DNA of 64,000 nucleotides. Source: Deltaproteobacteria bacterium. Lineage in GTDB: Bacteria; Myxococcota; Myxococcia; SLRQ01. The notes under the pieces were generated by a model that worked only from the letters and a program-made list of their open reading frames with translations, did no database searches and had not been told where the DNA came from. The position numbers and the translations under genes were made by a program. Below are positions 4,357 through 62,026 of the stretch, piece by piece. Every line of letters begins with the position of its first letter. Position 1 is the first letter of the stretch. The stretch covers positions 133,806 through 197,805 of the forward strand of contig JARGFU010000001.1 of NCBI GenBank assembly GCA_029210625.1, in the 5' to 3' direction.

Positions 4357-4815
4357 ATGAAGCTGAAGCACTGGGACATCGTACTGGCGGCGGCGCTGAT
4401 CGGCGGGGGCCTCGGCTGCCCGAGCGAGAGCGCCGGGAACGCGGTCTGCGGCAACGCCGTGGTCGAGGTGGGCGAGGCCTGCGACGACGGCAACACCACC
4501 GCCGGGGACGGCTGCGACGCGACCTGCCAGTGGGAGCCCTGCACCGACGCGGACGGCGACGGCCACGAGGACGCCACCTGCGGGGGCGACGACTGCGACG
4601 ACGGCGACCCGGCGAACTTCCCCGGAAACCCCGAGGTCTGCGACGGCCTCGACAACGACTGCCAGGGGGGCGCCGACGACGGCCTGACCTTCCTCGACTA
4701 CTGGCCCGACCTCGACCAGGACGACCACGGCGACGCGAGCGCCACGCCGGTGAGCGCCTGCGCGCCGATCGCCGGTTCGGTGACCAACGGCGACGACTGC
4801 GACGACACGCAGTAA
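4357..4815 (+). CDS. Secreted or lipoprotein cysteine-rich repeat protein, N-terminal part. It ends at an in-frame TAA inside a repeat.
   Basis: Signal peptide MKLKHWDIVLAAALIGGGLGC. Contains a Myxococcus cysteine-rich repeat (GNAVVEVGEACDDGNTTAGDGCDATCQ) and MopE-like putative metal-binding motifs (CxDxDGDG...CDDGDPxxxPGNPEVCDGLDNDC). Confidence 0.6.
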   Translation: MKLKHWDIVLAAALIGGGLGCPSESAGNAVCGNAVVEVGEACDDGNTTAGDGCDATCQWEPCTDADGDGHEDATCGGDDCDDGDPANFPGNPEVCDGLDNDCQGGADDGLTFLDYWPDLDQDDHGDASATPVSACAPIAGSVTNGDDCDDTQ

Positions 4816-4917
4816 ACCATCAGCCCCGACGCCACCGAGCTCGAGTGCGATGGCTTCGACAACGACTGCGACCCCCTGACGCCGGACGACCTCGACCTCG
4901 ATCAGGACGGAGTCGGT

Positions 4918-6765
4918 GTGTGCAGCGACTGCAGCGACACCGATCCCGACAACTGGGACTCCTGCGCGACCTGCGTGGACGAGGACGGGGACGGCGCCTA
5001 CGCGGGCTGCGACGCCTACGTGATGCGGGCCGGCGAGGACTGCGAGCCCCTCGACCCCGCCATCCACCCGGGCGCCACCGAGATCTGCGACAACATCGAC
5101 AACGACTGCGTCGGCGGCGTCGACGACAACGTCGCCTACCTCGACTACTACCTGGATGGCGACGGCGACGGCTACGGGGACGGCGGCGCGGCCCCGGTGA
5201 ACGACTGCACGCCCCCGGCCGGGCGCGTGCCGGACGCCACCGACTGCGACGACGGGGACCCCAACAACTGGGCCTCCTGCAGCGCCTGCGTCGACGGGGA
5301 CGGCGACGGCACCTACGCCGGCTGTGACGCCTACCAGACGATCCTCGAGGACTGCGACGACGGGGACGGCGCCAACTTCCCCGGCAACACCGAGGTCTGC
5401 GACGGCGCGGACAACGACTGCGCCGGCGGGGCCGACGACGGCCTGACCTTCAGCGACTACTGGCCGGACATCGACGGCGACGGCTTCGGCGACGCGCTCG
5501 CGGCGCCGGTGAGCGCCTGCGCGCCCCCCGCAGGCACGGCGCCGAACGGCAACGACTGCGCCGACGGCGACCCGACGGTGAACCCCGGCGCCGTCGAGAT
5601 CTGCGAGGACACCATCGACAACGACTGCGTCGGCGGCGACGCGGTCTGCGCCTGCGGCAACGGCTCCCTCGAGAGCGGCGAGGTCTGCGACGACGGCAAC
5701 CTCTGCGCCTACGACGGCTGCTCCGGCGATCCGGCCGGCGCGGTGAACCAGTGCCAGGGCGAGGAGACCGTCGTCCTCACCACCCTGGCCCTCGGCACCG
5801 GCACCACCGGTTTCGACCTCGACGGCGACGGCACCATCGACAACCGGCTGGGCTCCAACGGGACCCTGCGGGGCGAGTTCAACAACATCCTCGCGGGCAC
5901 CCTCGACGACGGCAGCCTGATGCAGGTCTTCACCATCGCCGCCCTCGACAACGTGCCCTACAGCGGCACCGGCACGCCGGGCTACCAGGACGATCCCGAC
6001 GTGGTGGTCTCCCTCTACCCGACCGTCGATCCCGCCTGCACCACCGGCCCGGTCTACGGCGCCGCCAACCCGCCGCCCTGGATCGCGGGCCCCTGGCCGG
6101 TGGAGCTCTACAGCGACGCCGACGCCTGGGACACCGCGACCTGCGTCGGGGGCGCCCAGATCACCGACGCCGACGACCCGGCCAACGGCATCTACCCCAC
6201 CGGGGGAGGCCAGCTCGCGAACCCGGCCCCGCCGGCCCCCTACCTCCGGGCCCACGCCAGCCAGCTCTCCCTGGCGCTGGTCGGCGTCCAGACCGTCCTG
6301 CACGACGCCACCATCGAGGCCACGGTGGTGGACGACACGGCGGGCATCTCCGCGCTCACCAACGGCGTCCTCGGCGGAGCCGTGGCAGCCAGGAGCCTCT
6401 GGGGCATCCCCCTCGACGGCCCCGGCGGCAGCTGCGAGACCGCCCTCCACGCGGTCCGGGCGGTCGCCGGCGTCCCGGACATCGACATCGACGGCGACGG
6501 GTCCATGACGATCTCGGTGAGCTGCGCCGGCGGCTGGCTGGCCTGCCTGGTGCCCTGCGGTGGGGCGATCTGGTCCCTGGGCGACTGCGTGGACGAGGCC
6601 GGCACGGTCATCCCGGACAGCGACCTGAACGGCGATGGCGTCGTCTCCGACGGTGAGTGTCTCCTCGATCCCCGGATGGACGACGGCTACTCGGCGGGCA
6701 TGACCTTCACCGCCCAGGAGGTCAGCGTCACCCGCCAGGTCAGCGCGAGCACCTACTGCCCCTGA
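4918..6765 (+). CDS. Cysteine-rich repeat protein, continuation. Same frame as 4357..4815 and has no signal peptide of its own. Carries further MopE-like motifs and a C-terminal domain.
   Basis: Listed with a GTG start at 4918, but the frame is open and repeat-like immediately after the TAA at 4813-4815. Carries at least 6 more CDDGDPxxxPGAxExCDxxDNDC units. Confidence 0.55.
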   Translation: MCSDCSDTDPDNWDSCATCVDEDGDGAYAGCDAYVMRAGEDCEPLDPAIHPGATEICDNIDNDCVGGVDDNVAYLDYYLDGDGDGYGDGGAAPVNDCTPPAGRVPDATDCDDGDPNNWASCSACVDGDGDGTYAGCDAYQTILEDCDDGDGANFPGNTEVCDGADNDCAGGADDGLTFSDYWPDIDGDGFGDALAAPVSACAPPAGTAPNGNDCADGDPTVNPGAVEICEDTIDNDCVGGDAVCACGNGSLESGEVCDDGNLCAYDGCSGDPAGAVNQCQGEETVVLTTLALGTGTTGFDLDGDGTIDNRLGSNGTLRGEFNNILAGTLDDGSLMQVFTIAALDNVPYSGTGTPGYQDDPDVVVSLYPTVDPACTTGPVYGAANPPPWIAGPWPVELYSDADAWDTATCVGGAQITDADDPANGIYPTGGGQLANPAPPAPYLRAHASQLSLALVGVQTVLHDATIEATVVDDTAGISALTNGVLGGAVAARSLWGIPLDGPGGSCETALHAVRAVAGVPDIDIDGDGSMTISVSCAGGWLACLVPCGGAIWSLGDCVDEAGTVIPDSDLNGDGVVSDGECLLDPRMDDGYSAGMTFTAQEVSVTRQVSASTYCP

Positions 6766-6785
6766 ACCAGAGTCCGGACCGCTCG

Positions 6786-7238
6786 TCAGGAGAGCGCGGC
6801 CTCGGCGGCCCGCTTGAGGGCCACCGCCTCCTCCTGCAGGTGGCGGTGCGCCGAGTGGAGGGTGTTCGAGCTGCGGCCCCGCAGGCCGAGGCGGCTGCTC
6901 GAGCGCAGGAGGGTCGCCCGTCCCTCGTCGAGGGGCTGGAGGTCGAAGGCGCAGCCCGGGATGAGCAGGGACATCGGCCAGACGGGGCGGAACTCCACGT
7001 GCCGGTTCTCGATCACCTCGACGAAGATCAGCCGGGAGCGCCAGAGCCTCCCGAGGACGAAGGCCTCGGCGTAGCAGATCGAGCCGGTCTGGAAGGGCGC
7101 GCCCCGCGTCCACTCCAGGTGCTCGTGGGCGCGGTGCCACTGCCGGTAGTTGCGGGTGTCGGAGAGGAAGATCTCGAGCTGGGCGTAGACCACCTCGGGC
7201 GGCGCCTCGATCCGGACCGCGTCCTCGAGCTTCGACAT
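6786..7238 (-). CDS. SRPBCC (Bet v1 / polyketide cyclase-like) family protein
   Basis: The N-terminus MSKLEDAVRIEAPPEVVYAQL is typical of SRPBCC proteins. A GGGAGGTG RBS lies upstream of the ATG at 7238. The track's longer start (7256) is less likely. Confidence 0.65.
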   Translation of the reverse strand: MSKLEDAVRIEAPPEVVYAQLEIFLSDTRNYRQWHRAHEHLEWTRGAPFQTGSICYAEAFVLGRLWRSRLIFVEVIENRHVEFRPVWPMSLLIPGCAFDLQPLDEGRATLLRSSSRLGLRGRSSNTLHSAHRHLQEEAVALKRAAEAALS

Positions 7239-18672: not shown

Positions 18673-19170
18673 CTAGCGCATCCCGAGCTCGAAGGCCTTC
18701 GCGGCCGTGAGCTCGTCGTTGGTCTTCCGCAGCCGCTCGGCGAGCGTCTGGCAGAAGCCCCGGTAGATCTTCCGGGCCAGGGTGTCGTCCGCGGCCAGCA
18801 CCTTCTCGAAGGCGTCCCGCTCCATCACCAGCAGGCGGGCGTCCCTCGTCACCCGCACCCGGGCGCTGGTGAGCATGTCGTCGACCAGGGCCATCTCGCC
18901 GAAGATCTGCCCGGGGCCGAGGCGGCCGAGCTCCTCGTCGTCGCCGTCCCCGTCGGTGTCCTCGCCGCGGGTGACCAGGACCTCGCCCTCGATGATCACG
19001 TAGAGGGCATCCCCCAGGGCGCCCCGCTCGATCACGACCTCCCCGGCGGGCACGTCGCGGTGCGCGGCGATCTCCCCCAGGCGGGTGGTCTCGTCGAAGT
19101 TCAGCTGCGAGAAGATGCGGAGCTTCTGGAGCAGCTCCACCCCCTCCACCTCACCGAGTGCATTGTCCAC
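18673..19170 (-). CDS. Cyclic nucleotide-binding (cNMP/CAP effector) domain protein
   Basis: Carries FGEMALV…RSARV phosphate-binding-cassette-like motifs. Sits immediately upstream of pilT on the same strand. Confidence 0.7.
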   Translation of the reverse strand: MDNALGEVEGVELLQKLRIFSQLNFDETTRLGEIAAHRDVPAGEVVIERGALGDALYVIIEGEVLVTRGEDTDGDGDDEELGRLGPGQIFGEMALVDDMLTSARVRVTRDARLLVMERDAFEKVLAADDTLARKIYRGFCQTLAERLRKTNDELTAAKAFELGMR

Positions 19171-21760: not shown

Positions 21761-22240
21761 CTAGCCCGATGCGCCCAGGCGTCCGCCGAGGGCGGCCACC
21801 AGGAAGAACTGCACCCGCCGCTGCAGCCCGGGAGCGCCGCTCTCCCGGCTGCCGGCGACGTTCAGCACCCGCACCCCGTGCTCGGCGCAGAAGTCGATGA
21901 AGCGCCCGGCCCAGCGCTCGTCGTTCCGGGAGAGGTCGACGTGGAGGAGCGGCCGGCCGTGACGGCGGGTCAGCGAGGCGGTCAGGGCCGAGCCGCCGGT
22001 GGGCTCCCCGTAGGTGAAGAGCACGGTGGCGTCGGCGGCCAGCACGTTCCTCTCGGTGCGGACCGCGTAGTCGCGCTCCGGGGTCTCCTCGAGGTGGTAC
22101 CGCTCGGGGATCCGCCCGTCCTCGGCGCGGCGGCCGGCGGGGCAGGCGCCGCCGTGGGAGAGACCGAGGAAGAGGGCGGCGTCCAGGCCACCCCGGTCGG
22201 CGCCCGTCTGCCCGCCGGAGATGATCTTCTCGACGCTCAC
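21761..22240 (-). CDS. SLOG-family 'putative molybdenum carrier' (YpsA/LOG-like Rossmann) protein
   Basis: IISGGQTGADRGGLDAA is the signature of the MoCo_carrier/SLOG family. Confidence 0.65.
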   Translation of the reverse strand: MSVEKIISGGQTGADRGGLDAALFLGLSHGGACPAGRRAEDGRIPERYHLEETPERDYAVRTERNVLAADATVLFTYGEPTGGSALTASLTRRHGRPLLHVDLSRNDERWAGRFIDFCAEHGVRVLNVAGSRESGAPGLQRRVQFFLVAALGGRLGASG

Positions 22241-50754: not shown

Positions 50755-51669
50755 TTGAGCACCCTCCTCGGCGAGCTGGCCTGCCTGGGCGCGGCGGCGG
50801 TCTGGGCCTTCTCCCTGACCCTCTTCCGGGGGCCCATCGCCGCGCACGGCTCGGTGGCGGTGAACCTCGTGAAGTGCGCGGTGGCCACCCTGCTGCTGGG
50901 CGGGACCACCCTCGCCCTCGGCCAGCTCGAGGCCCTGACCGGGGCGAGCCCCGCGGCGCTGATCTTCCTCGCCGCCTCGGGGGTCGTCGGCCTCTCCCTG
51001 GGCGACAACGCCCTCTTCGCGGCGGTGCACCGGCTGGGGGTGCACCGCACCCTGCTGCTGCAGACCACCGCCCCGATCTTCACCGCGCTGCTGGCCTGGG
51101 GCTGGAAGGGCGTGATCCCCACCGGCCCTCAGCTCCTCGCGGCGGTCGTCATCCTGGTGGGCGTGGCCCTGGTCGTCGCCCCCTCGCGAGGGGAGAGCGT
51201 CGAGGCGGACGGCGCCGACCACCCGGCGCCCCTCTCTCTCGGCGTCGCCTTCGCGGTGCTGGCCGCCCTCGGGCAGGGCTTCGGCATCGTGCTCGCCAAG
51301 GAGGGCATGAGCGAGGTGAGCGTCATCCCCGCCGCGACCTTTCGCCTCGGCGCGGCGGCCCTCGGCCTCTTCCTCCTGGCGATCCCGGGCGGCGGCCTCG
51401 GGCGCACCCGCGCGCTGCTGACGCACCGCCCCTCGGTGAAGCGGGTGATGCCGGCGACCTTCCTGGGCTCCTACCTCGCCATGATGCTGATGATGGCCGG
51501 CATCGCCTTCGCCCCCGCGGCCATCGCGGCGGTGCTCCTGGGCACCACCCCGATCTTCAGCCTGCTGGTCGAGTCGGCGGAGCAGCGCCGCCTGCCCGAT
51601 CTGCGCCCCACCGCCGGCACCCTCGTCGCCGTCGTCGGCGTCGCCGCCCTGGCCCTGCTCTCGGCCTAG
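50755..51669 (+). CDS. DMT-superfamily (EamA-like) transporter
   Basis: Ten TM helices with duplicated halves. Non-ATG (TTG) start as listed in the track. Confidence 0.65.
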   Translation: MSTLLGELACLGAAAVWAFSLTLFRGPIAAHGSVAVNLVKCAVATLLLGGTTLALGQLEALTGASPAALIFLAASGVVGLSLGDNALFAAVHRLGVHRTLLLQTTAPIFTALLAWGWKGVIPTGPQLLAAVVILVGVALVVAPSRGESVEADGADHPAPLSLGVAFAVLAALGQGFGIVLAKEGMSEVSVIPAATFRLGAAALGLFLLAIPGGGLGRTRALLTHRPSVKRVMPATFLGSYLAMMLMMAGIAFAPAAIAAVLLGTTPIFSLLVESAEQRRLPDLRPTAGTLVAVVGVAALALLSA

Positions 51670-52211
51670 CCAGGCACGTACGTCAGACCCACGCCGCCAC
51701 CACCGGGCCAGAGCAGCGGCGTGACGACCACCTCGGCCGGACGGCGGCGCCTCGAGAGGAGCCGCTGGGCGATCATGGCCGCGCCGATCGCGAGGACCCC
51801 GAAGCCCACGCCCGCCAGGGCCGGCTCACCGTGGTAGAGCGCGAAGCCCGCCAGGGTCGCGCCGGCGAGGCCGAACACGATGGCGGGGCCCACCGGCCCC
51901 AGCTCCAGGAGCGACCAGCCGGCGAGCCCGACGAGGAAGCCTCCGGCGGTCAGGGCGCCACCGAGCAGGATGCCCGTCGTGTAGGACCACGGAGCACAGT
52001 CACCCGGGCTCGCCATCCAGCAAGGAAAGGCCAGCGAGAGCCCCCCCGCCACCATCAGGGCGCCGCCCGCGGAGAGCAGGACCGTGCCATCGACTCGCCG
52101 GTGCTCCTTCTGGACCTCCGCCTGCGCCGCGCTCGAGTCGGCCCGAGCGTGAGCCGAGGGAGCGCAGAGGAAGAGAACCACCAACAGCGACGTCACTCCG
52201 TACCGCGTCAT
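51666..52211 (-). CDS. Hypothetical membrane protein
   Basis: MTRYGVTSLLVVLFLCAPSAHARA signal peptide followed by 3-4 TM helices. GGAGGGA RBS. It is the only protein-like part of the 767-aa track ORF. Confidence 0.45.
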   Translation of the reverse strand: MTRYGVTSLLVVLFLCAPSAHARADSSAAQAEVQKEHRRVDGTVLLSAGGALMVAGGLSLAFPCWMASPGDCAPWSYTTGILLGGALTAGGFLVGLAGWSLLELGPVGPAIVFGLAGATLAGFALYHGEPALAGVGFGVLAIGAAMIAQRLLSRRRRPAEVVVTPLLWPGGGGVGLTYVPG

Positions 52212-52255
52212 GCCGACTCCCTCCATCTGCCAGGCCGCTCTCTCCGTGGCCGCCC

Positions 52256-55200
52256 TCAGACGAGCGCGGAGAGGTAGTCGGCGCGCAGGCCCTCGTCGCG
52301 CAGGACGTCGTAGGCGTCGTCGAGGCCGCGGCGGATCTCCTCGAGCTTGCCCCAGAGATCCTGGTAGATGACGTCGGCGTAGCGGGCCGGCTGCATCTCC
52401 CGGGAGAGGCGCTCGTAGGCCTCCTTGATCTCGTAGGCGGTGGCGTCGCGGGTGACGCCGAGGATCTCGAAGTAGTCGGCGTCCAGCGCCTGGCGGAACT
52501 TCTCCTCGATGCGGGTGCGGTCGATCACCGCCTGGCTCTGCGCCTCCTCGGGAGTCGAGGCCCGGCCCTCGGGCATGGCGCCGCGCACGCGCACGGAGAC
52601 CTGACCAGTCGACTCGAGGACGTAGAGCACCTGGTAGGTGGGCTCCTCGCCGAGCCCCGAGAGGAAGACCAGCTCCTCGGCGGAGTGGAGCCCATCGACG
52701 CTGGTGGCCACCCGCCGCTCGCGGGCCGAGAAGCCGAAGACCTGCCAGTCGCCCGCGGTCTCGGTGGGAGCGAGCACGGTGGCCGGCCCGCCGAGGCAGC
52801 GGTGGATGCGATCGAGGGTGTACTTGCGGCGGATGCCCTCGGCGACGAGCGCGAAGGGATGATCGGGCAGGGCCACCCGGGCGTCCTCCGGGCAGACGGC
52901 CTGGATCCAGCGCCAGCGCCCCTCCTCCTCGGAGAAGGCCCCGAAGAGCGCCGCCTGGGCCTGGGCCCGGACCGTGTCGTAGAGCTCCTGGGCCTTGAGC
53001 TGCCCGGCCTCGACCAGGGCGACGGCCGCCTGGCGGGGGAGCAGATCGCCCTCGGCCCGGATCTGCCGCGCCTGCTGGCGGGTGATCCGGCCCAGGCGGC
53101 AGGCGACCTCCTCCAGGCGCTCCGCCGCCGAGGTGGAGCTGGCGCCCACGACCCGGCCGAGCTCGACGAAGACGGCGCGGTTCACCGCGGCGCCGTGGAT
53201 CTCCAGCACGCCGGTGGCCCGGGCCCGGTAGAGGTCGGCCAGGAGCCGCGGCAGATCCCGCTCGAGGAGATCGCCCTCCTCGGGGAAGGGCGCGCCGGTG
53301 GGGTTCGGCTGGATGTCCTGGGGCGCCGGCGAGTGCGGCGCGGGCGCCGGCGGCGGCGCGGGGTTGCGGGGCGGGAGGGGCTGCGGCATGGGCGGCGGCT
53401 CCACGGGAGGCGGCGGCGGGGGCGCGGCCTGCTGCACCGGCGCCGGGGCGACGGGCGCGGGCGCCATCGCGGGGGCGGCGAGGCCTCCGTAGGAGGGTGC
53501 CGGCGGAGGCGGAGGTGGGGGCGGCTGCTCGGCGATGATCGGCGCCGGGGGCGGCGGCGGTACGGCGATGATCGGCGCGGGAGGCGGTGGAGGTGGCGGG
53601 GCAGGCGTCGGGGGCTCGTAGCCCCCCCAGGTGGGCGCGGCCAGGGCCTCGGGGTCGAGCCCCTCGGCACCCTCCACCACCCCCTCCTCCGTGGCGGTCT
53701 CGGCGGCACCCCAGCCTGCGGCGGCGCTGGCCTCGATCTCGGGTCCGCCCCCGAAGGGATCGAGGAGCATCGAGCCCTCTTCGACCTCGGCCGGCGGGGC
53801 CGGGATCGGAGGCTCGGGCTCCGGGTCGGGCGCATCGAGATCGATCGCCAGCCGGCTGCTGCGCTCGACGGGCTCTCCCTGCAGGGACTCCAGCTCGTAG
53901 GTGGTCGGACCGCCGGCGCCCCAGCCCGAGGCCCGGGTCGGCGCAACCTCGCGCTCGAAGGAGGTCCACCCTCCCTCGACCACCGCCGAGCGAGCGGGCC
54001 GTGGCGCCGGAGCAGGTGCGGGGGCGGGCGCCGGGGGCTCGGGCTCGGGCGGCGTGGCCGCCACCTCGATGGGCCCGGCGCCGGGTTCGTCCGGGAGCGC
54101 CTCGTCCTCGAGCATCGACTCGAGGTCCTCGAGATCCTCGTCGCGCTCGGCCTCCTGCTGGGCCCGGCGCTCGGCCTCGGCCTGGGCAGCCCGCTCGGCC
54201 TCGGCCTCGGCCAGGCGGCGGGCCTCCTCGCGGGCCTTCTCCTTCGCGGCGCGCTTGGCCGCCTTGCGGGCAGCCTCCTCCGCCTCGGCCTTGCGGCGCA
54301 GCTCCTCCGCCTCACGGCGGGCTTCCTCCGCGGCCAGGCGGGCAGCCTCCTCGGCCGCGAGCCGCGCCGCCTCGGCCTCGGCCTCCCGGCGCGCTGCCTC
54401 CTCGGCCGCCTGACGCTCCGCCTCCTCGGCCGCGAGCCGCGCTGCCTCCTCGGCCGCCTGACGCTCCGCTTCCTCGGCCGCCTTCTGCGCTGCCGCCTCT
54501 TCGGCCGCGAGCCGCGCTGCCTCTTCCTCGGCCGCCTGACGCTCTGCCTCCTCGGCCGCGAGCCGCGCCGCCTCTTCCTCGGCCGCCCTCTGCGCTGCCG
54601 CCTCTTCGGCCGCGAGCCGCGCCGCCTCTTCCTCGGCCGCCTGACGCTCTGCCGCCTCTTCGGCCGCGAGCCGCGCTGCCTCTTCCTCGGCCGCCTGACG
54701 CTCTGCCTCCTCGGCCGCGAGCCGCGCCGCCTCTTCCTCGGCCGCCTTCTGCGCTGCCTCCTCGGCGGCCTTGCGGGCCTCCTCCTCGAGGGCCCGCGCC
54801 CTGGCGTCCTCCTCCTCCCGGCGCTTGCGCGCGGCCGCGACCTTCTTCTTGGCCTCCGCCGCGGCGCGCTGCTTCATCGCCTCGGCCCGGCGCTTCGCCT
54901 CGGCCTCGGCCCGCTCCTTCACCAGGGCCTCTTCCTCTTCCGGGCTGGCGGCCTCGGCGCCGGCGGCGATCTCCCGGGCGGCCCGCTCCAGGTCGGCGGT
55001 GCGCTGGCGCTCGAGGGCGTCGGCCACCTCTCCCGCCGAGGCCGCGGTGACGGCGTCGTCGTCGGAGCCGGCCTCGGCGTCGCCCATCATCTCGGAGCCG
55101 ATGTCACCGAAGAGCTCGTCGGCCAGCTCCCCGGAGCGGCCCGGCTCGGTGACCTCCCAGGCGCCGGTGAAGCCCCGCTCCTCCTCCTCGGGGGCCGGGG

Positions 55201-55855
55201 CCCCACCCCCGGCGGCCGCGAAGGCCTCCTCGGCCCCCGTCGCGGTGAGGGCCTGGGCGCCAGGATCGGTGAGCGGCTCGTGCTCGTCCTCGTCGAGGGG
55301 CGAGGCCATGAAGGAGACCGAGGCCCCGGGGTCGGTGGCGCCGTCGTCCATCGCGGGGACCGGCGGCGGCGCCGCGGGAAGCCCGCTGATCGCGGCCAGG
55401 AACTCGGAGGCCTCCTCGTCGCTGGGACCGGGGAGGTCGGGGAGGTCGGGGACGGCGGTCACCGCGGTCTGCTCGCGGTCGCGGTCCATCCCCAGGTAGG
55501 CGTCGACCTTGGCGGCCACTTCGGCCCAGGGCACGGGCCGCCGGAAGAAGCCGTCGCCGCCGTTGGCCAGCGCCGAGGCCGCGTCGGTGACCTCGCCCTG
55601 GCCGTCGCCGATCATCAGCACCGGCAGCATCGGATCCTTGGCCTGCTGCCGGATCGTCTTGCAGATCTCCAGGCCCGAGTGCTCGTCGGTGGAGAGCGAG
55701 AGGATCACCAGCGCGGGATCGTCGTGCTCGATCACGACCTCGGCGTCCGCCGCGTTCGAGGCGACGACCGGCTCGTAGCCACCCTCCTTGAGGATTCGCC
55801 GGGCCGCGGAGACGGACGCGATGTCGTCGTCGATGACGAGGATGCGCTTGGGCAT
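52256..55855 (-). CDS. Multi-domain protein: pseudo-receiver (REC lacking the phospho-Asp), acidic region, E/A-rich 17-aa tandem coiled-coil repeats, Pro-rich region, DUF4388 (PATAN-like) domain, and a J-like domain lacking the HPD motif
   Basis: The N-terminal CheY-like fold (ILVIDDD…) has Ser where the phospho-acceptor Asp is expected (ALVILSLS). About 10 AAEEEAARLAAEEAERQ units. A PPPPPAP-rich tract. DUF4388 core GDLLERDLPRLLADLYRARATGVLEI…RAVFVELGRVV. C-terminal DYFEILGVTRDATAYEIKEAYERLSREMQPARY (J domain with HPD replaced by QPA). Confidence 0.8.
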   Translation of the reverse strand: MPKRILVIDDDIASVSAARRILKEGGYEPVVASNAADAEVVIEHDDPALVILSLSTDEHSGLEICKTIRQQAKDPMLPVLMIGDGQGEVTDAASALANGGDGFFRRPVPWAEVAAKVDAYLGMDRDREQTAVTAVPDLPDLPGPSDEEASEFLAAISGLPAAPPPVPAMDDGATDPGASVSFMASPLDEDEHEPLTDPGAQALTATGAEEAFAAAGGGAPAPEEEERGFTGAWEVTEPGRSGELADELFGDIGSEMMGDAEAGSDDDAVTAASAGEVADALERQRTADLERAAREIAAGAEAASPEEEEALVKERAEAEAKRRAEAMKQRAAAEAKKKVAAARKRREEEDARARALEEEARKAAEEAAQKAAEEEAARLAAEEAERQAAEEEAARLAAEEAAERQAAEEEAARLAAEEAAAQRAAEEEAARLAAEEAERQAAEEEAARLAAEEAAAQKAAEEAERQAAEEAARLAAEEAERQAAEEAARREAEAEAARLAAEEAARLAAEEARREAEELRRKAEAEEAARKAAKRAAKEKAREEARRLAEAEAERAAQAEAERRAQQEAERDEDLEDLESMLEDEALPDEPGAGPIEVAATPPEPEPPAPAPAPAPAPRPARSAVVEGGWTSFEREVAPTRASGWGAGGPTTYELESLQGEPVERSSRLAIDLDAPDPEPEPPIPAPPAEVEEGSMLLDPFGGGPEIEASAAAGWGAAETATEEGVVEGAEGLDPEALAAPTWGGYEPPTPAPPPPPPPAPIIAVPPPPPAPIIAEQPPPPPPPPAPSYGGLAAPAMAPAPVAPAPVQQAAPPPPPPVEPPPMPQPLPPRNPAPPPAPAPHSPAPQDIQPNPTGAPFPEEGDLLERDLPRLLADLYRARATGVLEIHGAAVNRAVFVELGRVVGASSTSAAERLEEVACRLGRITRQQARQIRAEGDLLPRQAAVALVEAGQLKAQELYDTVRAQAQAALFGAFSEEEGRWRWIQAVCPEDARVALPDHPFALVAEGIRRKYTLDRIHRCLGGPATVLAPTETAGDWQVFGFSARERRVATSVDGLHSAEELVFLSGLGEEPTYQVLYVLESTGQVSVRVRGAMPEGRASTPEEAQSQAVIDRTRIEEKFRQALDADYFEILGVTRDATAYEIKEAYERLSREMQPARYADVIYQDLWGKLEEIRRGLDDAYDVLRDEGLRADYLSALV
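54431..54770. repeat. Tandem 51/54-nt direct repeats (about 6 units) encoding the AAEEEAARLAAEEAERQ coiled-coil repeat
   Basis: The unit cgcgagccgcgc[c/t]gcctcttcctcggccgcctgacgctctgcc… recurs at 54431, 54506, 54557, 54611, 54665 and 54716. Confidence 0.8.
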
Positions 55856-55933: not shown

Positions 55934-55975
55934 AAGCGGCCGCCAAAGAGCCCGACTTTCGGCCGCTTAGCCGCG
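55934..55975 (-). terminator. Possible intrinsic terminator or hairpin downstream of priA
   Basis: On the minus-strand RNA, AAGCGGCCGAAAG…CUUUGGCGGCCGCUU forms a roughly 13-bp imperfect stem followed by a CUUCUUGG run. The U-tract is weak. Confidence 0.25.
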
Positions 55976-55989
55976 GTGGGAGACGTGCG

Positions 55990-58431
55990 CTAGAGCATGT
56001 TGCCCGGATCCACGTCCAGGCTCATCCGCACCCCGCTGCGCGGCGGCAGGGAGGCGAGGTAGCCCCCCAGCCAGCGCACCGCGGCCGGGCTGCCGGCCTT
56101 CACCAGGAGCTGCCAGCGGGCCTTGTTGCGCAGGCGGGAGAGGGGCGCCGGCGCCGGCCCGAGGATCTCCAGGTCGGCCTCCGGGCTCTCCATGGCGGCG
56201 ATCTCGGCGGCCCGCCCGGCGGCCAGGGCCGCCAGCTCCACCTTCCGCGGGCTCCCACCGTCGAAGCGCACCAGGAGCAGGCGGCAGTAGGGGGGCCAGC
56301 GCATCTCCTCCCGGGTGACCAGCTCACGGCGGGCGAAGCCGGCGTAGTCCCCGGCCAGGGCCGCCTGGATCGCGGGGTGATCGGGCTGCCAGCTCTGGAG
56401 GATGACCCGCCCGGGATCCTCTCCGCGGCCGGCCCGCCCGGCCACCTGGGAGAGGAGCTGCACCGCCCGCTCGGCGGCGCGCAGGTCGGGGATCCACAGG
56501 CCCTGATCGGCGAGCACCACCCCCACCAGGGTCACCCCCGGGAAGTCGTGCCCCTTCGCCACCATCTGCGTCCCCACCATCACGTCGAAGTGGCCGGAGG
56601 CGAAGCCGGCGAGGCCCTCGGCCAGGGCGCCGCGCTGCCGGGTGGCGTCGCGATCGAGGCGCAGCACCCGCACCCCGGGGAAGCGCCGCAGCACCTCGTG
56701 CTCCAGGGCCTGGGTGCCGGCCCCCGCCGCCTGCAGCTCCCCGCCGCAGCCCTCGCAGTGGCGGGGGATCTCGGCGTCGTGGCCGCAGTAGTGGCAGAGC
56801 ACCACCGGCGGCGAGCGGTGCAAGGTCAGGCTGATGTCGCAGTTCGGGCAGCGCCGGGTCTCGCCGCAGCTCGGGCAGAGCAGGGCCGGCGCCTGGCCGC
56901 GCCGGTTCAGGAAGAGGATGGCCTGCTGGCCGGCGCCGAGGGTCTCCTCGAGGGCGCCGATGAGGGTGCCGGTGAGGAGGGGCAGCACCTCCTCGCGCCC
57001 GCCGCCCTCGAAGCTCGCCGGCCGCTGCTGGCGCAGGTCCACCACCTGCACCTCCGGCAGCGAGCGCCGCGCGACCCGTTCCAGAAGGCGGTGGTGGGCG
57101 TAGCGGCCGCGCTCGACGTTCGCCAGGGACTCGAGGGAGGGCGTGGCCGAGCCCAGCACCAGGAGCGCGTCGCTCTGCCGGGCCCGCACCACCGCCAGAT
57201 CTCGGGCGCTGTAGCAGAGGCCCTCTTCCTGCTTGAACGAGCCGTCGTGCTCCTCGTCGACCACGACCACGCCGAGCCGCTCCACCGGGGCGTAGATCGC
57301 CGAGCGAACCCCCACCGCGATCCGCGCCTCGCCGCGGTGCAGGCGCCACCAGCTCTCGCGGCGCTCGGCGTCCGAGAGCCCGGAGTGGAGCAGGGCCACC
57401 GTCGGCCCGAAGCGCGCCTGGAAGCGTCCGACGAGCTGGGGCGTCAGGGCGATCTCGGGCACCAGCACCAGGGCGCCCAGCCCCCGCTCGAGGGCCGCAT
57501 CGATCAGGCGCAGGTAGATCTCGGTCTTGCCGCTGCCGGTGACCCCCTCGATCAGGTGGGCGGAGAAGGCGCCGAGGGAGGCCACCAGCGCCTCGACCAC
57601 CGGTCCCTGCTCGGGCGTGAGCTCTCCGGGGCGGCCGGGATCGGCCTCGACGGCCACCCCTCCGCCGGACTCCGGGGCCTCCTCCAGGGCGACCAGGCCC
57701 CGCTCCTCCAGCTTCTTGAGCAGGGGCCCCGCGCCGGGGACGGCGGCCATCAGCTCCTGGCGGCTCGCCTCGCCCCGCGCCTCCAGCCACTCCATCACCG
57801 CCCGCTGCGCCGGGGCCCGCTCCAGCTCGAGCCGGGCGTCGTCCAGGGAGTGGAGCTGCCGCACGGTGACCGGCACGGCGCGCCGGCCCTCGCGGACCCC
57901 CTCCCAGGACTCGCGCACCTCGGCCACCCCCGCCTCGAGCAGGCGCGCCGCCACCGGCGTGGGCACGCCGCCGCGCCCACCCACCCGCAGGCGCCCGGCC
58001 GGCGCCTCGCGCAGGCGCGCGAGCACCTCCTCGGCGGCCTTGCCGAGGGCGGGCGCCTCTTCTGGCGCGGGGCTCGAGGGCACGAGGAAGCGGGAGCCCC
58101 GCAGCGCCATCCCCGGCGGCAGGGCGGTGCGCAGGACGTCACCGAGGGGATGCAGGTAGTAGTCCGCGGCGAAGACGCAGAGGGAGATCAGCTCCTCGGA
58201 GAGCAGGGGCTCGAGGTCGAGGATCTCCAGCAGGTCCCGGGCCTCGTAGCCCTCGGGGGTGGCCCCCTCCGGCTCGATGACGATCCCGGTGAGGCGGCGG
58301 CCGCCGAAGGGGACGAGCACCCGCTGCCCGCGAGCGAGCGGCACCCCGGCGAGGTGCTCGGGCACCCCGTAGGTGAAGGTGCCGTCCACCGGCACGGTGA
58401 CGGCGACCTCGACGAAGCGACCCGCTGCCAA
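55990..58431 (-). CDS. priA: Primosomal protein N' (replication restart helicase PriA)
   Basis: Walker A GVTGSGKTE, a DEEH helicase motif, and the Cys4/Cys4 zinc-binding insert CPSCG…CPNC…CHYCG…CEGCG. Confidence 0.9.
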   Translation of the reverse strand: MAAGRFVEVAVTVPVDGTFTYGVPEHLAGVPLARGQRVLVPFGGRRLTGIVIEPEGATPEGYEARDLLEILDLEPLLSEELISLCVFAADYYLHPLGDVLRTALPPGMALRGSRFLVPSSPAPEEAPALGKAAEEVLARLREAPAGRLRVGGRGGVPTPVAARLLEAGVAEVRESWEGVREGRRAVPVTVRQLHSLDDARLELERAPAQRAVMEWLEARGEASRQELMAAVPGAGPLLKKLEERGLVALEEAPESGGGVAVEADPGRPGELTPEQGPVVEALVASLGAFSAHLIEGVTGSGKTEIYLRLIDAALERGLGALVLVPEIALTPQLVGRFQARFGPTVALLHSGLSDAERRESWWRLHRGEARIAVGVRSAIYAPVERLGVVVVDEEHDGSFKQEEGLCYSARDLAVVRARQSDALLVLGSATPSLESLANVERGRYAHHRLLERVARRSLPEVQVVDLRQQRPASFEGGGREEVLPLLTGTLIGALEETLGAGQQAILFLNRRGQAPALLCPSCGETRRCPNCDISLTLHRSPPVVLCHYCGHDAEIPRHCEGCGGELQAAGAGTQALEHEVLRRFPGVRVLRLDRDATRQRGALAEGLAGFASGHFDVMVGTQMVAKGHDFPGVTLVGVVLADQGLWIPDLRAAERAVQLLSQVAGRAGRGEDPGRVILQSWQPDHPAIQAALAGDYAGFARRELVTREEMRWPPYCRLLLVRFDGGSPRKVELAALAAGRAAEIAAMESPEADLEILGPAPAPLSRLRNKARWQLLVKAGSPAAVRWLGGYLASLPPRSGVRMSLDVDPGNML

Positions 58432-58445
58432 GGCCTGCCCTCTCC

Positions 58446-59195
58446 CTAGCTCGCGGGCTTGAAGAGCTTGGGATCGAGGTCGAGGTTCTGCTCGAGGCGC
58501 TCGGCCACGAAGCGGGCCCGGAGCTTTCCGTCGACGCGCAGCTGGATCTCGCGGGGGTGGAGCTCGCCGGTGGCCGGATCGTTGAAGCCGGTCATGCGCA
58601 GCTCGAGCAGCTGCTCGCCCGATTTCGTCCGCACCTGCACCGGCAGGAGCTTCTCCTTGTCGAACCAGATCGAGGGCTTCTCCACCTCGCTCGGCTTCGC
58701 CCCCACGACGTAGACCATCCGGTCATCGAGGCGGGAGAGGCCGCTGTAGGCGAGGTCGATCTTCCAGCGCTTGGCCAGGGCGTCGAGCTTCTCGGCGCCG
58801 AGCTCCTTGATGGAGAGGACCGGGCAGGCCAGGGAGACCAGCTCGTCGAGGAGCGCGAGCTTGCCGGCGGCCTTCGCGATGAGCTTGCCGTCGCGCACGA
58901 TGACGTGGGTGCCGCCGAGCTCGCCGGCCACTCCGTCCTCGTCGATCTCGAAGCGGCAGTCGCCCGGGAAGCGCAGGGTGTGGGTCGCCGGCAGCACCGT
59001 CCGCACCCCGGCCGCGTCGGTGATCACCAGCCGGCCGCCGACCTGCTGGTTGTCGGACTTCAGCTTCTCCCGCTGGCTGGCGAAGAGCTCGAAGATCGCG
59101 GTGGCGGGCAGCACGTAGGCCAGGGCCGGAGCGGCGACGCCGAGGGTGAGGGCCGCCAGCGCGGCGAGGAGGTGCTTTCGATGCAGACGCTTCAT
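58446..59195 (-). CDS. Hypothetical periplasmic protein (LolA-like size/fold is only a guess)
   Basis: Signal peptide MKRLHRKHLLAALAALTLGVAAPALA. 249 aa. Confidence 0.45.
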   Translation of the reverse strand: MKRLHRKHLLAALAALTLGVAAPALAYVLPATAIFELFASQREKLKSDNQQVGGRLVITDAAGVRTVLPATHTLRFPGDCRFEIDEDGVAGELGGTHVIVRDGKLIAKAAGKLALLDELVSLACPVLSIKELGAEKLDALAKRWKIDLAYSGLSRLDDRMVYVVGAKPSEVEKPSIWFDKEKLLPVQVRTKSGEQLLELRMTGFNDPATGELHPREIQLRVDGKLRARFVAERLEQNLDLDPKLFKPAS

Positions 59196-60070
59196 GATCC
59201 TTCTCTCTCGAGCAGCTCGCGCATCATCGCGAGCACGCCCTCCCGCAGCTCCTCGCGCTCGAGGGCGTAGGCGAGGTTGGCGTGCAGGTAGCCCAGCTTG
59301 TCCCCGGCGTCGAAGCGCTCACCCTTCACCACGATGCCGAGCATCCCCTCCTCGGCGCAGAGGGACTGGAGGGCGTCGGTGAGCTGGATCTCGCCGCCGT
59401 GTCCCCGCCCGGTGCGGGCGAGGTGGTCGAAGATCGAGCCGGGCAGGAAGTAGCGGCCCATGATCGCCAGGTTGGAGGGGGCCTGGCCCTGCGCCGGCTT
59501 CTCGACCAGCTCCTCGATCCGGAAGACCTCGCCCTCCCACTGACCGGCGACGATGCCGTAGCGGTGGGTCTGATCGTCCGGGACCTCCATCAGGGCGATG
59601 ACGCCCTTGCCCTCGCGCTCCCCCACGACCTTGAGCTGCTCGATGGCCGGGACCTCGCAGCGCATCAGGTCGTCACCGAGGATCACCGCGAAGAACTCGT
59701 CGTCGGCGACCGGCCCGCGGGCGCAGAGGACGGCGTGGCCGAGCCCCAGGGGCCGTTTTTGCCGGACGCTGGTGAGGCGGCACATCATGCTCACCGCATG
59801 AACCGCCTCGTACTCGGCGCTCTTCCCGCGGTCCTGCAGGGTGCGCTCGAGCTCGAAGGCGATGTCGAAGTGATCCTCGATGGTGCCCTTCCCCCGCCCG
59901 TTGACGAGCACGATCTGCGAGAGCCCCGCCGCCACCGCCTCCTCGACGTTCAGCTGGAGGGTGGGCACGTCGACGATGGGCAGCATCTCCTTGGGGATGG
60001 CCTTGGTCGCCGGCAGGAAGCGGGTGCCGAGGCCCGCGGCGGGGATCACCGCCTTGGTCGCGTTGCGCAT
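59192..60070 (-). CDS. galU: UTP--glucose-1-phosphate uridylyltransferase
   Basis: KAVIPAAGLGTRFLPATKAIPKEMLP is the GalU N-terminal signature. Start taken at MRNATK (60070), not the track's longer start. Confidence 0.85.
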   Translation of the reverse strand: MRNATKAVIPAAGLGTRFLPATKAIPKEMLPIVDVPTLQLNVEEAVAAGLSQIVLVNGRGKGTIEDHFDIAFELERTLQDRGKSAEYEAVHAVSMMCRLTSVRQKRPLGLGHAVLCARGPVADDEFFAVILGDDLMRCEVPAIEQLKVVGEREGKGVIALMEVPDDQTHRYGIVAGQWEGEVFRIEELVEKPAQGQAPSNLAIMGRYFLPGSIFDHLARTGRGHGGEIQLTDALQSLCAEEGMLGIVVKGERFDAGDKLGYLHANLAYALEREELREGVLAMMRELLEREGS

Positions 60071-60132
60071 GGGGCTCGAAAGGTACCGGGGGGCAGCGGA
60101 GGGGACAAGGGAGCAGGCCCTCGCCCCGCCGC

Positions 60133-60414
60133 TCACTCGTCCCTGGAGGCCGCCTCGACGGTGTGGTCGAGGCAGCGCGCGATCTCGTCCGCGTCGAGGT
60201 GCTCGCCCTCCTTCGGCTCGAGCCGCAGGGCGATGCGATCCCCGGAGGCCTCGACCTCCAGGCGCCCGAGCTTCTCGTACTCGGTGGTCGGGCAGCCGCA
60301 GCGCCCCTCCCGGCAGGCCTGGAAGGCCTCGAGGAGCGCCTCCTTCTTCTCCCCGGTCTCCTCGAGCTTCACCTCGAGGTGATCCGGCTTCTCTTCCAGC
60401 TCGTAGCGCACCAT
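60133..60414 (-). CDS. Small hypothetical protein (93 aa) with a CxxxxCGC cluster
   Basis: GAGGAGGA RBS. The sequence MVRYELEEKPDHLEVKLEE… is protein-like. It is the only real part of the 339-aa track ORF. Confidence 0.45.
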   Translation of the reverse strand: MVRYELEEKPDHLEVKLEETGEKKEALLEAFQACREGRCGCPTTEYEKLGRLEVEASGDRIALRLEPKEGEHLDADEIARCLDHTVEAASRDE

Positions 60415-60443: not shown

Positions 60444-61484
60444 CTACAGCAGCTCGAGCGAGGTGGCGACCCAGGCCTCGACCTCGGCCCAGCGCTCGAA
60501 GACCCAGGCGGCCCGCCCTTCCGCCGGGATGCTCGCGGCGGGGATCCGCCAGAGGCGCACCCGCAGGCGCCGCCCGACCAGCGCGCCCCCGAAGAACTCG
60601 GCGAAGCTCTCCACCCCCTCGAAGCCGGTGTGGGCGAGGATCACCACGTCGGTCTTTGGCGCCGCCTCCAGCAGCGCCAGGACGCCACCGAGCCGCGGGG
60701 GCAGGACGTGGTGGAGGGCCTCGGCGCGCTCGACCAGCGCCGCTTCCCCCGCCTCGCGCAGCCGCGCCAGCGCCCGCTCGCGCTTGGCCGGGGAGAAGCG
60801 GGTCCCCTCCGGGAAGATGAGCACCCCGCTGCGATCGTCGAGGTCCCGGCCCAGCCCGGCCACCGCCGCGACGGCCTCCTCGCTGCGCCGGCCGGAGCGA
60901 TCCACGAAGGCGTTGGGGAGGCGTCGGCCGACGACGTCGAGGCAGGGATCCCAGAGCAGCTCCTCCTTGAGGACGTAGCGCAGCAGGAGGTCGTGGGGGT
61001 TGGCGAGGACGAAGGCGGCCAGCACCGTGTCGGCGGTGCTGGCGTGGCGCACCCAGAGGAGGAAGGGCGGCGGGAGCACCTCCGCGGCGCCCTCCACCTC
61101 CAGCGTCATGCCGTAGATGCGCAGGGCCCCGCCGAAGAGGTGGTCGCTCCACCAGCGCTGGAGGATCCGGTTGCGCTCGAGGTAGCGGGCGTGGCCGCCG
61201 AGGCGGCCCCCGTGGGCCCGAAGCCAGATCGCGCCCGCGGAGAGGAGGCCGGCGGCCTCCAGCCCGAGGTAGAGCCCGAAGAAGAGGACGGCTCGCAGCT
61301 TCCCGGCCCGGCGTCGCCCCGCCCCCGCGAGGTCGGCGAGCCCGGCGAGGAGGAGCCAGGCCGGCGCCAGCCCCCAGACGAGGGCGAAGAGGAAGAGCAC
61401 GAAGGGGATCGAGAGGAGGCGGCGGCGCCAGATCTGCCAGAGGGTCTCGCCGCGCCGGCGCCCGATCGGCAGCGGCCCCGTCAC
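60444..61484 (-). CDS. Lysophospholipid (1-acyl-glycerol-3-phosphate-type) acyltransferase, membrane-anchored
   Basis: Carries the RHASTAD (HX4D) and FPEGTR motifs. Two N-terminal TM helices. Confidence 0.7.
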   Translation of the reverse strand: MTGPLPIGRRRGETLWQIWRRRLLSIPFVLFLFALVWGLAPAWLLLAGLADLAGAGRRRAGKLRAVLFFGLYLGLEAAGLLSAGAIWLRAHGGRLGGHARYLERNRILQRWWSDHLFGGALRIYGMTLEVEGAAEVLPPPFLLWVRHASTADTVLAAFVLANPHDLLLRYVLKEELLWDPCLDVVGRRLPNAFVDRSGRRSEEAVAAVAGLGRDLDDRSGVLIFPEGTRFSPAKRERALARLREAGEAALVERAEALHHVLPPRLGGVLALLEAAPKTDVVILAHTGFEGVESFAEFFGGALVGRRLRVRLWRIPAASIPAEGRAAWVFERWAEVEAWVATSLELL

Positions 61485-62026
61485 CGCCCGGCCAGGCCCT
61501 CGATCGCCGCCATCACCTCGTCGAGGGGCGCGTGATCGCCCGCCTCCCGGCTGCGCTGCTGGTAGACCGTCTTGCCAGCGGCGGTGATGAGGAAGACCCC
61601 GCCGAGCTGCCAGGGGTCACCCTTCACCGCCGTCTGCCGGAAGCCCGCCTTGAGGGCCCGCAGGGTGTGCCCGGGGCTGCGCAGGGAGAAGGCCCCCCAG
61701 GCCCCGCCGGCCTTCAGCCCGGCGGCGGCGTAGGCCTTCATCTCGGGGTCGACCCAGAGCTCGAAGTCGATCCCCGCCTCCTCCCGGAAGGCGCGGGCGT
61801 AGTCCGGCGTCCCGTTGCCGATCACCACCAGCCGCACGCCCCTCGCCTCGATCTCGGCTTGCGCGCCGCGCAACTGCGCGACCTGCTCGCGGCAGAAGAT
61901 TCACCCGAAGTGGCGGATGAAGACGAGGAGGACCGGCCCCCGCTCCCAGGCCGAGCGCACCACCACCGGCGCGCCTCCATCGTCGACCAGCTCGATCGCC
62001 GCGAGCTTCTTCGCCGGATCACTCAA
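61481..62026 (-). CDS. Candidate selenoprotein: PRXL2/PAMM-family (AhpC/TSA_2) thioredoxin-fold protein with TGA (61901..61903) read as Sec in a U-x-x-C redox motif
   Basis: TTG start with a GGAGGTGA RBS, overlapping the SDR stop. Two track ORFs lie in the same frame, separated only by a TGA: …LLVFIRHFG-[TGA]-IFCREQVAQL…GGVFLITAAG. The motif G[C/U]xxCRE matches PRXL2A RRPGCFLCREE. A GC-rich hairpin starts about 10 nt 3' of the TGA. Confidence 0.5.

Follow-up and report, generated by a model that had tools for sequence, protein, structure and literature searches.

What kind of protein carries a receiver domain at one end, a J domain at the other and several hundred residues of low-complexity sequence in between? 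The question is raised by a gene for a 1199-residue protein on contig JARGFU010000001.1 of a Deltaproteobacteria bacterium (GenBank assembly GCA_029210625.1; GTDB lineage Bacteria, Myxococcota, Myxococcia, SLRQ01). We analysed the 64,000-nucleotide (nt) stretch of that contig in which the gene lies (positions 133,806 to 197,805 of the forward strand, referred to as the window, whose numbering is used below). An earlier reading, made from the letters and their translations and referred to here as the sequence-only reading, had described the protein as a pseudo-receiver followed by an acidic linker, a repeat tract, a Pro-rich segment, a DUF4388 (PATAN-like) domain and a degenerate J domain. It regarded the combination as a new architecture and as a possible polarity or motility scaffold. 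We find that the protein is real and built in this way, and that the architecture is the norm of a Myxococcota-wide orthologue, of which the 1199-residue protein is one member. The family is large and uncharacterised.

The protein belongs to a Myxococcota-wide family

The window has a G+C content of approximately 72%, and the G+C content at third codon positions (GC3) of the 1199-residue open reading frame (ORF) is 0.93 overall and 0.88–0.99 by segment, with no segment below 0.88. Because GC3 is high in every segment, the whole frame is coding, including its low-complexity middle. We rejected the possibility that the ORF is misassembled or fused, as frame and GC3 are continuous and the architecture is common to orthologues. 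NCBI holds an identical protein under accession MDF1561554.1, labelled "MAG: response regulator [Deltaproteobacteria bacterium]" (MAG, metagenome-assembled genome), on a 530-kb contig. Profile searches recovered all three of the expected domains above their Pfam curated cut-offs: Response_reg (PF00072) at residues 5–117 (48.1 bits, cut-off 30.2), DUF4388 (PF14332) at residues 860–1010 (44.9 bits, cut-off 25) and DnaJ (PF00226) at residues 1127–1194 (32.7 bits, cut-off 27.8). The outcome that would have counted against the architecture in the sequence-only reading, a failure of these searches, thus did not occur. The peptide that had been quoted as the DUF4388 core was located at residues 861–906. 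The coordinates of the gene, its segments and the neighbouring genes discussed below are collected in Table 1.

To define the family, we screened 1.84 billion representative proteins with a profile built from the C-terminal 350 residues (alignment A1) and obtained 1657 representative clusters at E<1e-30. The module sits at the C-terminus in all 150 matches listed, in proteins of approximately 500–1400 residues. Using the query receiver, an N-terminal receiver was detectable in 78 of the 108 listed representatives of at least 600 residues, and most of the remaining 30 start with receiver-like β1 strings, e.g. "LLIVANP...". A scan for related loci with one genome per species found 80, all in Myxococcota or unclassified MAGs; the hosts comprise Anaeromyxobacter, Archangium, Myxococcaceae, Kofleriaceae, Haliangium, Enhygromyxa and Polyangia. 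All 29 aligned relatives match PF14332.

The orthologues range from 635 to 1393 residues, and only their terminal heads align. The orthologue group is defined by a receiver or pseudo-receiver, a variable middle, a C-terminal PATAN/winged-helix/J-like module and a position directly 3' of priA, all of which are found in the 1199-residue protein. The view that this is not a described architecture therefore has to be given up in the form in which it was put, since the arrangement is standard for an orthologue found throughout the phylum and databases label it "response regulator". Literature searches on PATAN/DUF4388, DnaJ and pseudo-receivers turned up no paper describing a receiver/PATAN/J protein, and NCBIfam contains no model dedicated to the family.

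Table 1. Features of the gene for the 1199-residue protein and of its neighbours in the window
Feature	Position	Strand	Basis
Complete ORF, 1199 residues plus stop codon, ATG start	52256..55855	minus	ORF call, GC3, NCBI identity
Pseudo-receiver, residues 1–122	55490..55855	minus	Pfam Response_reg; alignments to PhoP and CheY
Acidic, probably disordered linker, residues 123–304, carries L-F-G-D-I	54944..55489	minus	Composition; motif count
Conserved short motif L-F-G-D-I, residues 248–252	55100–55114	minus	34/130 family sequences
Ala/Glu/Arg-rich helical spacer, residues 305–590	54086..54943	minus	Composition and heptad analysis
51/54-nt tandem DNA repeat, 8.7 copies, encodes AAEEEAARLAAEEA(A)ERQ units	54322..54766	minus	Tandem Repeats Finder; unit comparison
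Pro-rich segment, residues 591–855, poly-Pro runs	53291..54085	minus	Composition
PATAN/DUF4388 domain, residues 856–1021	52793..53290	minus	Pfam DUF4388; AlphaFold2
Winged-helix-like domain, residues 1022–1092, packs behind PATAN	52580..52792	minus	
Degenerate J domain, residues 1125–1199, QPA for HPD	52259..52483	minus	
priA, upstream neighbour, 134-nt gap to the gene	55990..58431	minus	Pfam PriA domains; synteny in related loci and M. xanthus
PilT-like T2SSE ATPase, 359 residues	17577–18656	minus	
Stand-alone protein binding cyclic nucleoside monophosphate (cNMP), 165 residues, directly upstream of the PilT-like gene	18673–19170	minus	

Degenerate motifs in the receiver and J-like domains

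The N-terminal domain aligns with the receiver of B. subtilis PhoP with an E-value of 7e-14 (HMMER). In alignments to both PhoP and CheY the phospho-acceptor site (CheY D57) is occupied by Ser53 (codon 55697–55699), in agreement with the Ser read there previously, and the switch Thr/Ser site (CheY T87) by Gly83. The conserved Lys-Pro had also been taken to be lacking. This is correct for the lysine (CheY K109), which is replaced by Arg106, and incorrect for the proline, which is kept as Pro107. The acidic pair D9-D11 is preserved. Of 87 family receivers compared, 29 have Ser, 26 Ala and 15 Asp at the acceptor position. Gly takes the place of the switch Thr in 80 of the 87, members that keep the Asp included, and Arg that of the Lys in 45; Pro110 is invariant. 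Together, Ser53, Gly83 and Arg106, and the occurrence of the same degeneracy across the family, uphold the designation of this domain as a pseudo-receiver.

The C-terminal module was modelled with AlphaFold2 from 27–29 homologues. The predicted local distance difference test score (pLDDT) is 91.9 for the 350-residue module, and the PATAN and winged-helix portion has a pLDDT of 93.3 and a predicted template modelling score (pTM) of 0.88. The model consists, in order, of a β-α-β-β-β core, a four-helix insertion, a further strand and helices, the winged-helix-like domain, a linker helix and a four-helix J domain. Within PATAN the β-sheet core runs from three strands through four helices to a strand, the insertion covering approximately residues 913–973. 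This arrangement agrees with the description of PATAN in the title of a 2006 paper by Makarova et al., as cited, as a β-rich core interrupted by an α-helical insertion.

The J domain has Q1155-P1156-A1157 (nt 52385–52393) at the HPD position, the QPA that had been noted before. HPD is intact in only 2 of 153 family representatives, while the central Pro is retained in 83. At the helix-II site equivalent to DnaJ K26 there is a Glu, both in this protein and in 92 of the 153 representatives. The absence of HPD, the Glu at the K26 site and the family-wide degeneracy support the earlier expectation that the domain is poorly suited to stimulating Hsp70, and on these grounds we consider such stimulation unlikely. 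The degeneracy of both the receiver and the J domain reads as a conserved trait of the family, not as decay. Since the folds are conserved while the catalytic and signalling motifs are systematically disabled, the two heads would be expected to serve as binding modules.

A fast-evolving spacer between the heads

The linker that follows the receiver is polyacidic, as predicted, with a net charge of -35 over residues 123–304. It contains the motif LFGD[LI], which occurs in 34 of 130 family sequences compared with 0.9% of shuffled linkers. The motif is also found in the closest relative (locus L002), in M. xanthus (L082) and in Myxococcaceae and Archangiaceae copies, and Anaeromyxobacter has the variant PFFAD[LV]PP. 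A Trp-containing patch often precedes LFGD[LI], and the surrounding acidic linker is otherwise not conserved. The motif looks like a docking site, and we refer to it as a putative docking motif.

Residues 305–590 are composed of 37% Ala, 29% Glu, 19% Arg plus Lys and 1% Pro, with Gly absent, and contain 0.23 opposite-charge i/i+4 pairs per residue. The repeats in this tract had been expected to form a long coiled coil. Heptad analysis led us to reject that assignment, as strong hydrophobic residues fill a fraction of 0.16 of the a/d positions in the best register, compared with 0.17 ± 0.015 in shuffled sequences. Because the tract shows no heptad core, a charged single helix is preferred; judged by composition, a long charged helix of the single-α-helix or TolA-domain-II type fits better than a coiled coil. 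The middles of orthologues differ in this respect: those of Myxococcaceae form a heptad coiled coil with a/d occupancies of 0.43–0.50, the sole shuffle control (L076) giving 0.35, whereas the 1199-residue protein has the Ala/Glu/Arg tract.

Tandem Repeats Finder reports the DNA repeat within this tract with a period of 51, 8.7 copies and 81% matches. The previous description as about ten 17-residue repeats was correct as to the tandem array and slightly overcounted its units: the translated array comprises five near-perfect units of 17/18 residues (residues 371–458) along with three or four that are degenerate. Units 1 and 4 agree in every one of their 51 nt, so the array is young. The closest relative, 66% identical in the heads, carries a different Glu/Ala/Arg/Lys repeat unit. 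The expectation that the tract would be labile is thus supported both by the identity of some units at the DNA level and by the different unit in this relative. The L002 sequence, a long-read nanopore MAG, has a AKREAEEAARREAEEQ-like tandem repeat at approximately 6530–7100, and its reading frame shifts within the tract. The probable cause of the frameshift is faulty assembly or basecalling within the repeat, and the case shows how labile and how difficult to assemble Glu/Ala/Arg tracts are.

The segment that separates this tract from PATAN is approximately 31% Pro (measured on residues 600–855), with runs of 5–8 prolines and an internal 33-nt repeat at 53517–53594. Its description as a Pro-rich segment of more than 200 residues was accurate.

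A proposed two-headed adaptor and its alternatives

We propose, with about as much conviction as reservation, that the gene encodes the local orthologue of a cytoplasmic, non-phosphorylatable adaptor present throughout the Myxococcota, with two binding heads on a spacer and with partners that probably belong to the polarity or type IV pilus machinery. The N-terminal head would be a receiver without phosphorylation chemistry that serves as a binding module, and the C-terminal head a rigid PATAN/winged-helix/J-like unit that has lost the Hsp70-activating HPD. The very acidic, fast-evolving spacer that separates them would be made up of the disordered linker with its LFGD[LI] motif, a helix of approximately 285 Ala/Glu/Arg-rich residues derived from young repeats, and a Pro-rich stretch of approximately 265 residues. 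Such a protein would act by binding partners, and not by phosphotransfer or chaperone activation, tethering two sets of partners or holding them at a distance. Conserved heads with disabled chemistry make a scaffold the most likely mode of action, and to regard the 1199-residue protein as a scaffold candidate is reasonable.

The nature of the partners is suggested more weakly, by PATAN biology and by analogy with the cyanobacterial PATAN regulators and FrzS/AglZ. PilB1 and PilC are bound by PATAN-REC (REC, receiver) regulators in Synechocystis, and the PATAN proteins of M. xanthus, more than a dozen in number, include SgnC, which is required for social motility (bioRxiv 10.1101/2021.06.11.447907). 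Proximity labelling identified SgnC and a DnaJ/TPR protein as MglA-proximal (PMC10630675), and PATAN genes occasionally adjoin mglA/mglB (PMC4316618).

Several observations weigh against polarity or pilus partners. The link between PATAN and the pilus motor is established only for cyanobacterial proteins in which the domains come in the reverse order and the receiver can be phosphorylated. The particular kinship with FrzS that had been seen in the receiver was not borne out: the nearest solved receivers are ordinary OmpR/PhoB-type domains (PhoP-, PhoB- and MtrA-type best), and the 60 best-matching solved receivers include no FrzS chain. No MglA, MglB or Roadblock gene was found among the ORFs scanned, which were those of the window outside approximately 38.6–49.8 kb and 60444–61873, several short ones excepted. 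A pilT gene at a distance of 34 kb does not count as evidence for a role in polarity or motility. Lastly, the conserved neighbours (priA, def and a nucleotidyl transferase gene) are housekeeping genes, so the genomic context lends a motility role no support.

A specialised Hsp70 co-chaperone would be an unlikely alternative to the adaptor. Here the J-like domain would recruit a DnaK paralogue to clients held on the PATAN or receiver heads; the DnaK paralogues of M. xanthus include SglK and StkA, with functions in social motility and exopolysaccharide. The recognisable J fold is in line with such recruitment; the loss of HPD and the Glu at the DnaJ K26 site are not.

The neighbours themselves suggest a further explanation, a housekeeping factor tied to replication restart (priA) or to nascent-chain processing (def/fmt), for example through the winged-helix-like domain of the C-terminal module. 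Where the 80 loci from the genome scan have enough flank, most carry priA upstream in the same orientation, and the gap to the gene is 15–150 nt in at least nine loci. The position directly 3' of priA, usually with def on the other side, is seen in Anaeromyxobacter, Archangium, Myxococcus, Kofleriaceae, Haliangium and Enhygromyxa. The M. xanthus orthologue (P0209, locus L082), annotated "response regulator receiver protein", begins 15 nt after priA. def follows downstream in Myxococcia loci, and the order priA-X-def is kept across Myxococcia and Polyangia. The synteny extends 5' of priA to genes for a nucleotidyl transferase and a protein of approximately 250 residues (no Pfam match), which are common to the window (58446–60136, minus strand) and M. 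xanthus (L082, 3074–4728). priA-def-fmt is, however, an ancient cluster in other phyla too, e.g. in Bacillus, and the order may merely reflect insertion into a stable housekeeping operon. The link with def is already broken here, as there is no def anywhere in the 64-kb window, the sole departure from the context of the orthologue group. Considering also that the domains give no hint of DNA or ribosome chemistry and that the protein is strongly acidic, we judge this explanation distinctly unlikely.

The place that def takes in relatives is occupied in the window by an ORF of approximately 184 codons (51666–52220, minus strand; GC3 0.89) with a signal-peptide-like start and several hydrophobic stretches, membrane-like in character, which has no Pfam match and no homologue in the related loci. 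Between priA and the gene, at approximately 55934–55968, the transcribed strand carries a perfect 9-bp inverted repeat, AAGCGGCCG ... CGGCCGCTT, with a 17-nt loop, which the terminator scan did not flag. Promoter and terminator scans around the gene gave nothing notable.

It is also conceivable, if quite improbable, that the scaffold is controlled by a second messenger, with the helical insertion of PATAN acting as a GspE_N/MshEN-type module that binds cyclic di-GMP (c-di-GMP). The insertion lends itself to being read as a pair of 24-residue GspE_N-like half-motifs separated by a 5-residue spacer, in which the RLG triplets are incomplete. These triplets belong to the RLGxx(L/V/I)(L/V/I)xxG... 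motif and are the nucleotide contacts of MshEN; the two positions read RLE and QAA in this protein. No T2SSE_N (PF05157) match was found in 29 family members, even at E-values up to 10, and Foldseek yields nothing significant. We treat the GspE_N/MshEN-like resemblance of PATAN, and a GATOR1 NPRL2/NPRL3-like one that appeared as recurrent, weak structural matches, as leads only. The clear receiver fold, the retained D9-D11 and the NCBI name "response regulator" could suggest an ordinary response regulator that is controlled by phosphorylation and has an unusual output; this is contradicted by the replacement of the acceptor Asp, switch Thr and Lys by Ser53, Gly83 and Arg106 and by the loss of the Thr in 80 of 87 family members, Asp-keeping ones among them, and is highly improbable.

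The adaptor proposal can be extended to a bolder one, which we offer as a long shot. The family might be an unrecognised core component of myxobacterial polarity and pilus machinery in which PATAN is a longin/roadblock-like platform for the regulation of small GTPases with a GspE_N/MshEN-like insertion. It would physically couple signalling by MglA-type GTPases, and possibly c-di-GMP, to PilB-type ATPases, with the repeat helix and poly-Pro stretch as an evolvable ruler between the heads.

Taken singly, the protein is unremarkable within its lineage, and the claim that it is a one-off novelty is not upheld; the useful result is the family. This is a single-copy-looking gene, conserved across the phylum within a housekeeping operon, that encodes three signalling or chaperone domains, two of them systematically disabled. 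It gives the Myxococcus polarity field a concrete candidate, the M. xanthus gene immediately downstream of priA, and may offer a first structural hint as to the nature of the PATAN domain. Its members also form a natural series of interchangeable spacers between conserved heads, namely coiled coil, charged single helix and poly-proline.

Other genes in the window

The pilT gene and cNMP-binding regulator to which the sequence-only reading had pointed, at about 35 kb, are present approximately 34 kb away. The PilT-like ATPase and the cNMP-binding protein may constitute a cyclic-nucleotide-regulated pair. A link between this pair and the 1199-residue protein was considered and rejected, as the pair lies too far off, at 34 kb, and outside the conserved synteny. 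Elsewhere in the window, a 776-residue ORF (30678–33008, plus strand) matches MVP_shoulder (107 bits) and Vault_3 (36 bits), and its product is a bacterial homologue of the major vault protein of eukaryotes. Two adjacent proteins with MopE-type Cu-binding repeats and a circularly permuted YpsA SLOG-family protein were also observed (4357–6765, plus strand, and 21761–22240, minus strand).

Comparison with known systems

FrzS and AglZ are polarity and motility scaffolds of M. xanthus. They consist of a receiver and a coiled coil only (PMC11580455). Like the 1199-residue protein, they are cytoplasmic and myxobacterial and combine an N-terminal receiver without phosphorylation residues with a long helical rod. 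In the rod the Myxococcaceae orthologues are closer to them, having a true heptad coiled coil, whereas the 1199-residue protein lacks a heptad core. The family differs from both in its additional PATAN/winged-helix/J-like head and in a receiver that is nearest to the OmpR/PhoB type.

The cyanobacterial PATAN-REC proteins PatA, PixG and PixE share PATAN (PF14332) and a receiver with the family, and their PATAN binds PilB1 and PilC. Their PATAN is N-terminal, however, whereas here the order is reversed, approximately 730 residues lie between the two domains and the acceptor Asp is missing. The PatA-type receivers function in chemotaxis-type phosphorelays, and these proteins have no rod, Pro-rich spacer or J-like domain.

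RomR of M. xanthus, a scaffold of the MglA polarity module, has a receiver followed by a Pro-rich, acidic low-complexity region that is used for scaffolding. By description it resembles the 1199-residue protein in this succession of a receiver and an acidic Pro-rich region; it is much shorter and lacks PATAN and the J-like domain. A more distant analogy is provided by TopJ of the polar terminal organelle of the gliding Mycoplasma pneumoniae, which also combines a J-type domain with an acidic Pro-rich region. The 1199-residue protein has a weak NCBIfam TopJ match through the J domain alone. The J domain of TopJ is N-terminal, HPD-bearing and functional, and TopJ has neither receiver nor PATAN.

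J-like domains without HPD that have structural roles are known from Pam16/Tim16, mitoribosomal mL77 and chloroplast NdhU. These come from unrelated organelle contexts, and nothing beyond the J fold indicates common descent with the domain described here. The PATAN/J/TPR paralogues P0006 and P0008 contain the same PATAN/winged-helix/J module (P0006 is 26% identical over 93% of the query). They differ in having a C-terminal TPR extension and no N-terminal receiver or rod, and the HPD of P0008 is canonical. P0006 and P0008 are possibly of the same kind as the MglA-proximal "DnaJ/TPR protein MXAN_2049".

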